Assembly (NCBI GenBank): GCA_012295275.1
Contig: CM022674.1
Span: 11,346,001 to 11,410,000 of the forward strand
Direction: 5' to 3'
Length of the DNA: 64,000 nt
Source: Chrysomallon squamiferum
Taxonomy: Eukaryota > Animalia > Mollusca
The position numbers and the translations under genes are program-made. The notes under the pieces were generated by a model. It had not been told where the DNA came from and made no database searches. It saw nothing but the letters and a program-made list of their open reading frames with translations. The number at the start of each line of letters is the position of its first letter. Within the stretch, counting starts at the first letter, position 1. Below, piece by piece: positions 4,326-57,319 of the stretch.

Positions 4326-4341
4326 TACATTGATGTTGCAG

Positions 4342-4504
4342 GTATGTATGACATGCTGGGTAACGTGTGGGAGTGGACGTCGTCGAGGTATGAACAACTC
4401 GGAGTTCATCCCAAACATCAGGAAAATCTCTTAGTGCTGAAAGGCGGGTCACACCTCGACAGCGTCAGGGGCGACTTCGGCTACACCGTCCGAATTTCTA
4501 ACAG
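4342..4504 (+). CDS. SUMF2: SUMF2-like coding exon (active-site region without catalytic Cys)
   Basis: Acceptor gttgcag| and donor AG|gtattg. Encodes GMYDMLGNVWEWTSSRYEQLGVHPKHQENLLVLKGGSHLDSVRGDFGYTVRISNR. The GNVWEW motif is present, but the SUMF1 GGSYMCHRSYC cysteines are absent, as in SUMF2. Confidence 0.93.
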
Positions 4505-4849
4505 GTATTGTTGTTGTTGTTGTTGTTGTTGCTGTTGTTGTGGTTGTTGTTACTCAACCGTGAAATCATACTTTCATATGAGGTAACCGATTTGTCTAAC
4601 GTTTCTTCTACTGTTGTCAGGGGAAACAAAACTTTCAGTTCGTAATGACGTCATAACTCCGGTTGTAAATGTTTTATTACGATTAGTGATAAGTTGTTGC
4701 CCAAAACAATAAAATAATAATTTGGAAGTGCAAATAATTTTATTTGTATTGTGATTAAATACATTTTAATGATTTTTTTTTATCAATATTATATTGTCAA
4801 AATAAGCCTTTCATTTATTTATTTATTTATTTATTTATTTATTTTTCAG

Positions 4850-7960: not shown

Positions 7961-8101
7961 TTCCCAGGACACTGGCTAACCTCTGGTGTGCAGTGCAGTG
8001 GCGAGGTCTAATGGACGGATGAACCCCAGAATGCGCATGTCATGTCGGCTATTATCTCCTCGTTAGATTGGGATGAACCTGGAAAAGATCTTGATGACCC
8101 T
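7961..8101 (+). repeat. Dispersed module, copy 1 (TTCCCAGGACACTGG...GGATGAACC...)
   Basis: TTCCCAGGACACTGGCTAACCT at 7961, GGATGAACCC ~8017, GGATGAACCT ~8071, GATGACCCT ~8093. Confidence 0.6.
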
Positions 8102-10602
8102 GTCTTCTTTTGTCCCCATGACAACAAGATGGTTGTTTCGTGGTTTTCTGGGGTCCATCAGTATGTCACGGTAAAGAGGTATTCCTGCTATGTCTCCCTT
8201 TCCCATGCTCCGCGGCCATATTCTGTTTGTCGTGGGGTAGTTTCCTCCTTTAGTGCCCGATGACCCCGTGCGCTATGGATAATCTCTCTTGTCGTGAACG
8301 GGTAAACATTCCTCTTAATGGTCAGTCAGTGTTGTCCCTTATTGTCCAGTGTGTTAATGTTTATTAATCCGACGCGTCACTATCTCGCTAAACTGTTGTG
8401 ACGGGTGGTAACACAGCCAGAACGCCCTTTTTAACTTCGCTTCAGAATGATCTTCAAATCGTATTCGTTCTGTAGTTCGTAGCTTTATTTTATTTTATTT
8501 TATTTTATTTTATTTATTTATTTATTTATCAGTTTATTAACTTTTTTAAATTTATTTATTTTCAATACTCTAGCGAACAATTACATATTATAATACTACT
8601 GCAAGGCTTAATTAATACATTGGCTTCTTTTTTCAGTGATTTTCTGATATTTTATTTCCAAAATAGTTTTAAAAAAAGAACATTTCTTACCTTTATTTCA
8701 TTAACTGATATTACAAGTTAATTTTCTAAGACAGTAAAACAGTTTTGACTTTTCCAGTAAGATTTTTCTAATATTATTTTGATATAACTTTTGTAAGGTT
8801 ATTCTACCACTTTTCACCTTCCTTAATTTTACCTGAGTGCACAGAACGTCAGATCTCCGTTTCTCGTTTTCGCTCTGTCAACAACACATACACACATACA
8901 AACATACACATAAACACACGCACAAGCACTCACAAAGAAACACATACAAACATACACATAAACACACGCACAGGCGCGCACACACACACATAAAAAACAT
9001 ACAAAGAAAAGTATATAAAGTATGGACAGAGACATCGTTTCACAAATAACTGACATATGCGTTGTATTTTATAATTTATGATCATGTATTAAAATTAAAT
9101 TGAACTAAGACAGCACGTACATACGAACAGAAGGCGTTTGACACCAGATTTTAAATTTAAAAAAAAAATTAAAAAAATTAAAAAAAGAAAGAAAAGATGA
9201 CAAAGAAGGATTTTGATAAATCGTTCTGAAGAAGGTTAATTAACGCAGCCATTGTTTTCTTTCTTCGTACCTCCCTCCTTTTTTCACGCTTCATTTTTCC
9301 AGGTCACGCGTCGGCCTCACTCAAAAATAATTTTAGTGTTGAAAAAACTGAACATGCTACAGGCGTTTTGAAAGAAAAGATAGCTCAGGAATAAAATGAT
9401 ATGTTAAATGAATGGACACAAGGGCGTTAGAATAATTGTCCCATTCACGGGAAGATATACGCGGGACAGCGCTGTTGTCAGTCACGAGTATGAAAAATTG
9501 GTCCGCTGTTTCAGCCTTTCATCATTTTCTCGTATTGCGACTGCAGTCTGCGGTCACTTCGCTCTCCGTAACCTCTGAGTCCGGGTCAGTCATTATTTTA
9601 AGAGTTGTCAAATCTGGGAAGAAATATCTTTTATAAAAGGAAGACAAAGAAATAAAGAAGAAGAAGAAAAATATGAAGAGGACAGATGGGGGAATTTTTA
9701 AACAGAAGAATATTTTTTGATTTTTTTTTCTTTTTCTTTTGGTGATTTATTTTTGTTTGCGTGTAGAATCAGCGAGATTTGCAGTAATCGTGATACCAAC
9801 GACGTGGTGATTTGCAAGAATATGCAGCATCATCGATTCAGACATCAACGTCATGTATAATCAATATATCGAATTTCGTTCTTAAGAAAAAAAAAAGAAT
9901 GAATAGTTAAAAACCTTGAAGTGCCGCAATAACTATAAATCTGACATCGCAGTCTTGTTCAAATGTAATTTATATTAATGTTCTCGTTTGTGAAACATAA
10001 AATGCTTGTACTGTAAAAGAATAAAAAGAATTGATGAGAGAGAAAATGAGAGAAGGAAGAACCAACTCTATTTCTTTATTTGTCATGTTAAAAGTTTCAT
10101 TAGAGATGAGTTTCAGTCAGATAATTCTGTTTCTTTCTTTCTAATTTTTTATTTTTTTTTGCTTTCTTCTTCTTCTTTTCATACATTTCCTTTTTTTGTC
10201 TTGAAATCTTTTTACTTTTTCATTCTTTATTATGTCTTTCGTTTCTTTCTTTATTCTTTCTTTCTTCATTCTTTGTGTTTTCATTTGAATGTGTTTTTTC
10301 CTGCACGTGATCTGAATGGAGCGAAAAAGAAAAAGAAACGAAAAGGGACTATATAAAATTATAACAAATATATAAATAAAAAGTATTTCAAACAATAAAC
10401 TTAATGTTCTTATTTGTTTAAAAATTATTGATTAATGCATGTTTTAATGTATATATTAATTTTAATTCTTAAATTTAGTCTCATTCACAATAATTTAATT
10501 ATCAAGAGTGTGCATGGGAAAGACATATACGAAGATATTTTTTTTATTTTAATTTTTAATTTTTGTTTGACATTAGAACAATGTCATCTATGAGAAAAAA
10601 GA

Positions 10603-46668: not shown

Positions 46669-47547
46669 GAACAACAATAAATTGACTATTAATACCTACT
46701 AGGTATAAACAGTTTCAAAACCAAACAAAACTCTTTCTGAAGATCGGTAATAATAATAATGGTAATAATAAATGAAATCAACATAAATAATAATAATATA
46801 CATAATGATTCCTATGAATCTAGACAGTATCTCCCTCAAAAACAAACAAATGCACGTACATTTCACGTCAGGTGAAAAACATAACGGTTTCTCTGTTTTC
46901 AGAAACTTTGTACAAAAGCTATCGTCTTGACTAGGCTGTGTTCAAGTGAACGACTAACGTCTGTACATTCAAATAAACAGTTCTGTATTAAGCGTTCGCT
47001 GTACAGTGATGTTCAGATGTACACACAGTTAAACACACAGTCGACACGTTTATCTAGTACAATAATTAATATTAACATCTCTTTATTACAAGCCAAGGCC
47101 CCCGAGTTTACTTCGATAACTTCATGTAAAACTGTTTCTGAAGATGACAGTTTCAATTTAATCACATTTTAATTTAAATGTTCTGCATTTTTGGACGTTT
47201 TAATTACGTAGAATAACTGTTAACGTTTTACTGTTATTATAATTAACAATGACGTCACAATTACTGTTGTTACCATATCATTGTATTTTGATCATTACAA
47301 GACGATAATGGTAACAATAAATGAATTCTAAGTATTTTCACACAGATATGAACAAGGAATGCAGTAAATAATTAATAACTATTCTTGATATTACATTACA
47401 TCTTTGTATCATGAATTACTAACAGTGGTGACATCTCAATGAATTTCAGTGTTGGTAATTAATGTTTATAACGTAAATAGCAAATATGGCTATGGCTTGC
47501 AACAAAGAGTTCAGTCTTTGTAAAGTAACATTTTCACGAGTTGAAAA

Positions 47548-47568
47548 TTGGTCCCAACAACTAGCTGT
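47548..47568 (-). promoter_or_regulatory. miR-133 target site with seed plus extensive 3' pairing
   Basis: mRNA 5'-ACAGCUAGUUGUUGGGACCAA-3' against miR-133 UUGGUCCCCUUCAACCAGCUGU (recalled canonical sequence): nt 1-8 complementary, 3-vs-2 nt internal loop, 10 of 11 3' pairs. Confidence 0.75.
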
Positions 47569-47660
47569 AACTGGTGGCTATATTTCCATCAGTTTTAAGA
47601 GGAAAAAAAAAAATATATATATATATTTGTACACAATAATAGTCTCTTATTCAACTGTCT

Positions 47661-49676
47661 TTATGTTAGGCAAGCCAGTGGCGCGTAACTCGTCTTCATT
47701 TCATATCCAGGCTTGTTAATGGCAGCTTCGTCTCTATGGAAACCGTTAGGCAAAAACGCTGTGGGAGACTTTTGGTCGTCTTTGTTATTGTTATCATGAA
47801 ACTTGGCCTCACCTTTCACCTCCGCATCACGGTCGTCAGAACACGCGGCTGACACTTCAGCATCAGCCTCCTCGTCGTCGATTTCTGCATCATCCACTGC
47901 AACATCTTCTTCTTCGACGGGCGACGAATGCACGTTGCACTCACTTAGATCCATCTTATTGTCTTCACACACTGCCTCACTGTCGCCCTCCTTTGAAGAC
48001 GTTTTGCCCAAGAAATTCCGAATCTCGGCGAAATACGCCTCGTCCTTTTCCTCCAGGTCGTTCACGGGGGAGTCGATGACGTTGGAGCCTTCGGACTCGT
48101 GTTTCTTCAAGTGCCGGTCCAAGTTGGTTTGCTGGCCGAAACACCGGTCGCAGAGCGGACACTTGAAGGGTTTCTCCTTGTTGTGAATGTTTCTCACGTG
48201 GCGCTGCAGGTTGGACGAGATGCTGAAGGAACGCTCGCAGTATTTACACTTGTACGGCTGCTCGCCCGTGTGCGTCCTCAGATGACGAGTCAGGTTCGCC
48301 GACCTGGGAAAGATCTTGCCGCAGAACTTGCAGGCGTATCTCTCCTTCATCTTGTTCCCTCCCGCCGTGAACGGGTACTGGTCCGGCAGCTTCTCTATCT
48401 TGTTCATGGGCGACATCGTCTTGTCCATGTCTGACTGCATCATGCCGAAGGGACTCATCCCTGGGAAAACCGGACCGCCGATTGGAAACCGCGGGATCGG
48501 CATGAACTTGTTCAGATCGTGAAACGCCTGCAGCTTCTCTTTGTCCATTCTGAACATGGACTCCATGAGGAACGGGTTGGGAAACGGGTAAGCCAGATGG
48601 AATGGTGTTTTTGGTTCTGGTGCTGCTGCTGCTGGAGGTGATGACGAAACGACCTCGCCGTAGATGTGGGTCTTACGCGGCGTCTCCACTGGAGTGACGA
48701 CGACTCTCTTCTTGCTCAGGTCCAGCGGCAGGTCTTCCACGGGACTGGCGTCGGGCTGAGGCGACGGCGTTTTCTTGGAGAGGTCAAAGGGCACTTCTTG
48801 TCTGTGAGACAGAGGTGGAGTTATTGGAGAAGTTTCTTCGGTGCTCTTAGAAATACTGTTGTGCATGACGGGCGACATCCTCGGAAACGTTGGGCGAATT
48901 TCGCCCGGTTCCAGAGAGTCGCGTCTCATTTTCAGAGCGCCGCAGTCGCTCTCCATGTCAGACGTGGAGCTGACGTCGAGGTCGCTGCCAGTACTCATCT
49001 CTGACATGTCGCCGTCAGAGCCGTCCGGCAGCACGACGTCGTGCCTCTTCTCGTCTTTCTCGGAAGAACTGACACTCGGTGAATTGGGCGACAACTTCTT
49101 CTCGGGGGTCATCATGTTGGGCAGTGGAAGTCCAGCCAGGGGCGATCCGTGCAGTCCGGGGAACGGGGACCCGAAGGCCGGGTAAAATGGAAACGGAGGA
49201 CGAGATCCGTACAGTCCCACAAGACTCGAGTTCAGAGAGGACGGCTGACCTCCCGGCGACAACGACATTGGCGTCATCTTCTCGGCGCTGTAGCACATCC
49301 GCATTCCGTTTCTCAGCGCCCCCTCGCAGAACCGTTTGTGCTTGCTAAGGGAGGTCACTGTGGAGAAGGCCTGTCCGCAGTCCTTGCACTTGATCTGCTG
49401 TCGGCAGTCGGCGTGCATGCGCTTGTGTCTGCACAGGTTGGAGAACTGCGTGTACGACTTGAGGCACACCTCGCACTGGAACGGCTTCACCGTGCTGTGG
49501 ATGTGCTGGTGCTGCTTGAGGCCGCTCGACGTGGCGAACGTCTTGCCGCAGTCGGAGCAGGCGTGGCAGCGCGCGCCCACGTGCTGGGACCGGATGTGAC
49601 GCTGCAGGTTGCTGGGGTCGGTGAAAATCTTGTCACAGTTTTCACAGGGAAACCGCTTTCCAATGTTGTGTGCGAT
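47661..49676 (-). CDS. PRDM16: PRDM3/16 (MECOM/EVI1-PRDM16-Hamlet orthologue) terminal coding exon: 4 N-cluster fingers, CtBP motifs, 3 C-cluster fingers, acidic tail
   Basis: Acceptor tttcag|ATC; 672 codons including the stop. Contains [98 protein letters not shown] (48777-48791), PLDLS (48714-48728) and [32 protein letters not shown]...[14 protein letters not shown], all diagnostic of EVI1/PRDM16. The first 50 aa of the supplied ORF are intronic microsatellite. Confidence 0.97.
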
Positions 49677-50343: not shown

Positions 50344-50446
50344 CTGGTGGCGTATGAGATTCGATTTCCACTGAAAAGACTTTGGGCATTCGTCACATTT
50401 GAATTCACCTTCTAAACCCTCACTCTCTCTCGGGAAATCCTTATCA
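50344..50446 (-). CDS. PRDM16: PRDM3/16 coding exon (finger equivalent to EVI1 ZF3)
   Basis: Acceptor ctttcag| and donor CAG|gtatgt. Encodes (S)[34 protein letters not shown] and joins in frame to IAH (cf. EVI1 [23 protein letters not shown]). Confidence 0.95.
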
Positions 50447-56519: not shown

Positions 56520-56676
56520 CTTTTGTTGTCTTGCTCTGTTTTGTCGCTCAGTTCATACGTCATGGCGTTGTACGACGACTGGGAAGTTTTGCCACAAACA
56601 TACGTCTCGTGACGTCGCAGGGCGACCTTTGACCTGAACACTTCGCCACACTGTGAACACGGGTAAGCTCGATCAT
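56520..56676 (-). CDS. PRDM16: PRDM3/16 coding exon (first, C2HC-type finger); upstream PR-domain exons not seen in the window
   Basis: Acceptor ttttgtag| and donor AAG|gttagt. Encodes DRAYPCSQCGEVFRSKVALRRHETYVCGKTSQSSYNAMTYELSDKTEQDNK(S); its phase-2 end matches the next exon. Confidence 0.9.
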
Positions 56677-57319
56677 CTACAAAACAAACTCACAGTTAAA
56701 CGAAGGAATCGCAACTATCTGAAACACGTGTAAATGATATCATCACACGAAAGTTATAGAGACAAAACATGCAATATAACATGATGCCACCAGATATGAT
56801 AATGATATGATGTCATACGATGTCATATGATATAGATAATTTGCTATGATATTGTCATAGATATGTTCTGTATAATATTAAATACTTAATGTTTTTAAAT
56901 CTATATTCTCTCTCTCTCTCTCTCTTTCTGTCTCTGTCTCTGTCTCTATCTCTCTCTATCTGTCTCTCTCTTCCTCCCTCTCTCTGTTTTTCTGTTACCC
57001 TACCCACCCCCTTTTTCTTCATTTTACTGTCTGTCATCTCATTCCCTCTCCAAACTACGACTTTAACATTCTATTCTCATCTACAAAATCCTCTCCTTCA
57101 CAAGATACGAGCCATAGCAACCGATGTTAGGACAGACCGTTAACCGTGAGCGATGGTAAAGATTTTTTCGATCCGAAAACGACACAAAAAGACGAGGCAT
57201 TGTGCGCGGGTATTAACTCGATGGCTGACACCGAGAGAAAAGTGATTTACTGTAACTAACATTTGCTCTTCTTATCAAATCTCAAGACGGGATTTCAAGA
57301 GTGGTTATTTCCTGGCTTT

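Follow-up and report, generated by a model that had tools for sequence, protein, structure and literature searches.

The minus strand of the 64,000-nucleotide stretch of DNA analysed here, referred to below as the window, contains the 3′ end of a PRDM3/16 gene. A minus-strand open reading frame encodes 673 residues up to its TAA codon (47661-47663), and its product is closest to the MECOM/PRDM16-like protein of Gigantopelta aegis, a peltospirid (82% identity), followed by a protein from ENA (81%) and that of Haliotis asinina (65%). The final residues of the frame are identical to those of the two closest relatives, and for this reason the TAA is taken as the real stop codon. A quickly built tree with 34 rows joins the snail protein to Gigantopelta (support 100), Haliotis being their sister (95), which marks the host as a gastropod near Gigantopelta. 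The presence of two zinc-finger clusters together with the grouping among lophotrochozoan PRDM3/16 proteins places the protein in the PRDM3/16 (MECOM/hamlet) subfamily, such that closest proteins, C-terminus and tree all agree with the gene identity given in the initial annotation. The last coding exon (47661-49676, minus strand) encodes a zinc-finger cluster, three C-terminal zinc fingers and an acidic tail ending at the TAA stop, along with motifs that we take to be of the PxDLS type. Further upstream lie a zinc-finger exon at 50344-50446 (minus strand), with AG...GT borders read from the sequence, and a more distant one at 56522-56677 (minus strand), with limits as given by tblastn. A tblastn search with four full-length relatives found no PR/SET-domain exon in the window, including the part beyond 56677, and this exon may sit outside it. 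Elsewhere in the window an exon-like frame containing GMYDMLGNVWEW was seen on the plus strand at about 4330-4510, resembling the formylglycine-generating-enzyme (SUMF) family, and a second coding-looking piece lies at 8012-8263.

Downstream of the stop codon the plus strand at 47548-47568 reads TTGGTCCCAACAACTAGCTGT, giving on the minus strand a bipartite miR-133-3p site with the mRNA sequence 5′-ACAGCUAGUUG-UU-GGGACCAA-3′. With 92 nt between the TAA and the site the 21-mer begins at 3′UTR nt 93, in keeping with the distance of about 93 nt first given for it. Five sequencing runs contain the stretch, four of them recorded as RNA and all four from one study. The 3′UTR is covered by RNA-library contigs over 46831-47660 (minus strand), where contigs from three runs stop close together (46831-46837), faintly suggesting a UTR of 830 nt. 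The poly(A)-signal hexamers are found only downstream of the site, with ATTAAA at UTR nt 457, 488 and 499 and AATAAA at nt 574. In two of the four RNA runs a contig (X1, 47347-47835; X3, 47430-47730) bridges the coding sequence and the site with no joint, and when these contigs were compared over 46810-48090 there were no differing letters within the site. In the other two runs (X2, X4) the site is uncovered by contigs, a kind of gap that is uninformative. The site therefore lies in a transcribed 3′UTR, as the initial annotation had supposed, on the evidence of contigs that do not give strand and may include DNA.

Pairing was scored against the miR-133-3p sequence of the pearl oyster and not the snail's own miR-133. 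The miR-133 sequence given for this site in the initial annotation proved to be that of the pearl oyster miR-133-3p primer (PMC12560909 Table 1), mature miR-133 of two mosquitoes has the identical sequence (PMC2834634) and a clam form is one base longer at both ends (PMC10740791). In the duplex, g2-8 are paired with an A opposite g1, forming an 8mer seed match with A/U flanks at 47548-47555 (minus strand) and a canonical miR-133 target seed. A 2-nt target loop, UU at 47556-47557 (minus strand), faces miRNA g9-g11 in a 3x2 loop whose target side falls 1 nt short of the miRNA side (offset -1). The 3′-pairing block at 47558-47568 (minus strand) pairs g12-15 and g17-22 around a C-A mismatch opposite g16 at 47562, so that the 10 of 11 pairs to the miRNA 3′ end described at the outset, along with the 8mer and the CUU/UU central loop, were recovered as 4+6 pairs with a longest contiguous 3′ helix of 6 bp. 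Folding with ViennaRNA yields -12.0 kcal/mol for the 3′ part by itself and -26.1 kcal/mol for the whole duplex, with an MFE ratio to an ideal trigger of 0.78. An isoform of miR-133 extended by a 3′ A would gain a seventh contiguous pair at 47569 (-13.3 kcal/mol), while a 5′-shifted isoform still has a 7mer-m8 at the site (-27.0 kcal/mol).

Nowhere else in the 64 kb does the minus strand contain a 7mer-m8 or 8mer miR-133 seed match. The site scores 18 of 19, a value equalled in none of 40,000 dinucleotide shuffles of the UTR (best score 16), and the analytic chance of such a site is about 1e-7 for this one miRNA in an 830-nt UTR. These figures support pairing of the snail site to miR-133 beyond chance. 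A chance match or a neutral relic without function would gain some plausibility from the breadth of the possible search, as with some 250,000 windows to cover, roughly a hundred conserved miRNAs and a chance near 1e-7 for each UTR and miRNA, a few such sites would be expected by estimate. The miR-133 and PRDM3/16 pair was however already known in mammals (PMC3708806, PMC4709720), a similar site is present in a clam orthologue, and we judge this explanation improbable. The plus strand directly resembles mature miR-133, raising the alternative that it is a degenerate miR-133 gene copy antisense to the UTR. This was rejected because no pre-miRNA hairpin forms (z-scores of -0.3 to -1.1 for three plus-strand stretches); in addition Rfam gave no miRNA match at E<=10, with 0 matches at gathering score across the 64 kb and two chance matches near the site. 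A gene copy is as such extremely improbable.

Homologous UTRs were collected by scanning metagenome contigs with the C-terminal zinc fingers, which gave 289 confirmed stretches of which 80 were listed. Of the 80, three were discarded for want of a stop codon. The other 77 supplied downstream regions, each cut where the first in-frame stop occurs; some are short, and at loci with introns the stop used could differ from the genuine one. Judged by best match, four of the 77 regions from the matches listed are bivalve and none is recognisably gastropod. In the tree two of these loci (L004 and L005) fall within heterodont-clam PRDM3/16, L005 being placed next to Mya with an SH-aLRT of 95, while L016 and L038 fall in a second bivalve PRDM3/16 paralogue clade. 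This second clade is fast-evolving with support of 98-100, and comprises L016, L038 and the named proteins P0061, P0076, P0082 and P0086.

The Mya-like clam locus L005 carries AAGCTGGTATGATGGGAACAA at 1714-1734 (UTR nt 181-201), in which there is one seed mismatch (g4), the same 2-nt loop, pairing of g12-13, one bulged base and pairing of g14-20, the 3′ part having 7 contiguous pairs at -13.4 kcal/mol. A 7mer-A1 follows the site at UTR nt 240. The L005 site scores 16, which was reached in 5 of 40,000 shuffles of the L005 UTR. Of 600 shuffled miRNAs, 1 attained it on the L005 UTR and 9 somewhere among the 77 listed-match UTRs. These figures flatter the site because the score, which tolerates a seed mismatch and a bulge, was devised post hoc once the L005 site had been noticed. 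A tight 32-nt alignment aligns the snail and L005 sites while MAFFT on wider stretches does not, so that the two are at most candidates for positional homology. Within the 547 nt examined for L004, the second heterodont clam orthologue, no miR-133 site was found, and neither bivalve paralogue UTR (L016, L038) has one (0/2). A degenerate site with a 7mer-A1 is therefore found in one of two bivalve orthologue UTRs, the comparison being among bivalves. The 3′-pairing half, whose conservation the initial annotation had made the measure of its proposal, is partly kept in clam L005 and absent from the 547 nt of L004. Among the matches listed, 7-8mer miR-133 seeds occur in 2 of 55 non-redundant UTRs (73 kb, <=2 kb each) against 4.2 +/- 1.9 in shuffled sequence, and a perfect seed with strong 3′ pairing in 0 of 77. 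On these comparisons conservation is hinted at within molluscs and is not seen among the arthropod-like and other homologues of the matches listed.

Other features were noted among the loci collected. Short-word blastn of the snail UTR against the 80 listed loci returned AT repeats only. At UTR nt 517 of an unplaced long-branch locus (L023) there is an 8mer that lacks 3′ pairing, a result matched in 36 of 1000 shuffles. Strong duplexes in the GC-richer UTRs of L058 (-28.2 kcal/mol), L043 (-27.2 kcal/mol), L006 (-26.6 kcal/mol) and L053 (-25.1 kcal/mol) were rejected as candidates, having no g2-8 match. In three of these loci (L043 at nt ~265, L053 at ~208 and L058 at ~377) 8 nt matching the 3′ end of miR-133 are followed by a G-rich imperfect seed, at -25 to -28 kcal/mol. 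A scan of viral contigs gave no homologous loci, and a scan of genome contigs gave only bacterial zinc-finger loci, 24 in number with 36-51% identity to the PRDM3/16 fingers. These eukaryote-like C2H2 arrays (L081-L104) lie in bacterial MAGs of Sansalvadorimonas sp., Kistimonas sp., Endozoicomonadaceae and Ca. Dependentiae/Babeliaceae, 15 of the 24 coming from one Sansalvadorimonas MAG, and could be host-directed proteins or host contamination.

The repression of mammalian Prdm16 by miR-133 through its 3′UTR, cited as precedent in the initial annotation, is confirmed by a mouse Prdm16 3′UTR reporter that is repressed by miR-133a (PMC3708806), and a human EVI1 3′UTR reporter is likewise repressed by miR-133 (PMC4709720). 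The Prdm16 and EVI1/MECOM sites have in common with the snail site the miRNA family, the gene subfamily and a 3′UTR seed match (PMC3708806, PMC4709720), GGACCAA being the motif that was mutated in the mouse Prdm16 reporter (PMC3708806). In their descriptions the mammalian sites figure as ordinary repressive sites, and they lie outside the TDMDfinder pairs checked. A further proposal, that of the initial annotation in full, is that a single site would at once repress PRDM3/16 and destroy miR-133, as an inheritance from the common ancestor of protostomes and deuterostomes. In keeping with such descent both vertebrate paralogues are reported miR-133 targets (PMC3708806, PMC4709720), they arose by gnathostome duplication of one Prdm3/16 gene (PMC4760075), with Prdm16 and EVI1 deriving from that single ancestor (PMC4760075, PMC4843880), and miR-133 sites are present in one snail and one clam. 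Against it, no detectable repression of the host RNA was seen for trigger sites studied in mouse, fly and worm (PMC13041716), and because validated triggers behave in this way the mutual-antagonism switch is not supported. Bilaterian ancestry of the link is not supported either, since the homologue UTRs among the matches listed show no excess of miR-133 seeds and the only pair of human PRDM16 in the TDMDfinder tables is with miR-429, MECOM being absent from them, in material covering 9 of 16 PRDM16 places (PMC8887481). An ancestral switch with trigger layout is as such largely contradicted and very improbable.

The alternative of a TDMD trigger without such ancestry deserves more weight. According to this the PRDM3/16 mRNA would extract the miR-133 3′ end from AGO and, by recruiting ZSWIM8, rid PRDM3/16-positive cells, for example neural ones, of miR-133, the mRNA itself being little repressed. 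The site has the layout of a trigger in its seed pairing, central unpaired loop and non-coding position, and combines an 8mer with A/U flanks and a 3′UTR location with 6 contiguous pairs reaching the last miRNA base. At least 6 contiguous 3′ pairs are present in 12 of 13 validated triggers, at -9.6 to -17.1 kcal/mol (PMC10899785), and the snail site with 6 bp and -12.0 kcal/mol falls within these ranges, albeit as computed with a different folding program. Its MFE ratio exceeds the TDMDfinder cut-off of 0.7 (PMC8887481), and a 3′-A-extended isoform would bring contiguous pairing to 7. Among validated triggers there are moreover some in transcription-factor mRNAs and some that are lowly expressed or lineage-restricted (PMC10102002, PMC13041716).

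Three contiguity filters are failed by a helix of 6, namely those of TDMDfinder (at least 7 contiguous pairs; PMC8887481), Sheng 2023 (either more than 7 pairs among the last 8 positions or an unbroken run of 9; PMC10102002) and CLASHub (at least 8 contiguous; PMC13369745), although these are screening rules and not a definition. The trigger architecture originally proposed thus stands as regards the ranges of validated triggers and falls short at the contiguity filters (6 against 7-8). The ratio of 0.78 is also below the 0.8 that TDMDfinder takes as high confidence, and predictions passing its filters were confirmed in only 17 of 37 tests (PMC8887481). Compared with the validated 3′UTR triggers of Drosophila (zfh1/miR-12, h/miR-7, Kah/miR-9b, AGO1/miR-999 and wgn/miR-190; PMC10102002) and mouse (Plagl1/miR-322, Lrrc58/miR-503, and Lpar4 and Atp6v1g1/miR-335-3p; PMC13041716), the snail site is a sequence-based candidate in which the g16 mismatch interrupts the 3′ helix (4+6) and the offset is -1, whereas let-7a 3′ sites from g12 bind best at 0 or +1 (PMC8940178). 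The clam L005 version is without the perfect seed that has been called universal among triggers (PMC10899785).

In mouse embryos miR-133 is not among the ZSWIM8-sensitive lists of Shi 2023, the first of its five entries in Table S1 being in the all-miRNA sheet and not in the sensitive lists (PMC10620050). The paired miR-133 values given there, in either genotype order, are about level in heart (51,043/46,327 CPM) and muscle (24,997/27,297 CPM) and about twofold apart in skin (PMC10620050). In the eight supplementary files of Sheng 2023 there is no miR-133, which may simply reflect low expression in S2 cells (PMC10102002). A literature search of titles and abstracts found no miR-133 trigger, no invertebrate miR-133/PRDM3/16 site and no mollusc TDMD paper. 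The trigger reading stays open because triggers can be lineage-restricted and lowly expressed (PMC13041716); we consider it unlikely, and the fuller version in which the PRDM3/16 mRNA is a gastropod TDMD trigger built on a site already present in the snail-clam ancestor is likewise unlikely.

On balance we lean towards the site being a selected and high-affinity repressive miR-133 site and not a miRNA-destroying trigger. AGO-miR-133 would dock on the PRDM3/16 mRNA via the seed with the g12-15 and g17-22 helices delaying its release, such that PRDM3/16 output would be reduced in miR-133-rich cells, which by analogy may be muscle, while the extended pairing would keep the site usable for the 5′-shifted miR-133 isoform. 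Affinity derived from 3′ pairing is likewise a property of 3′-supplementary and 3′-compensatory sites of the lin-41/let-7 type (PMC8940178). Like the 3′-compensatory sites, clam L005 makes up for a mismatched seed with a 7-bp 3′ helix, and with its nearby 7mer-A1 the L005 version reads, as far as its sequence goes, as a repression layout. Unlike typical supplementary pairing of 3-5 bp (PMC10899785) the snail site is a perfect 8mer paired to the last miRNA base. In favour of a repressive site we count the non-chance match, the RNA contigs over the site, the same-layout L005 site, the mammalian Prdm16/EVI1 reporters, the limit of 6 contiguous pairs and the position of miR-133 outside the ZSWIM8-sensitive lists. 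Counting against it are the g17-22 pairing, which exceeds the need of repression and is a hallmark of triggers (PMC10899785), a predicted poor accessibility of the seed, with 79% of UTR 8-mers equally or more open, the L004 stretch without a site, the post hoc clam score and the possibility that the RNA contigs include DNA.

Deeply conserved miRNA-target pairs are rare. If the snail site is a strong repressive site the finding is a modest addition, and if a trigger it would be the first in lophotrochozoans and the first for miR-133, a muscle microRNA that would be cleared from PRDM3/16-positive cells with the direction of the mammalian miR-133/Prdm16 link reversed. The locus offers a precise TDMD candidate outside vertebrates, flies and nematodes, and the mollusc site suggests that the miR-133/PRDM3/16 link of mammalian muscle and brown fat also operates in molluscs, by descent or by convergence.
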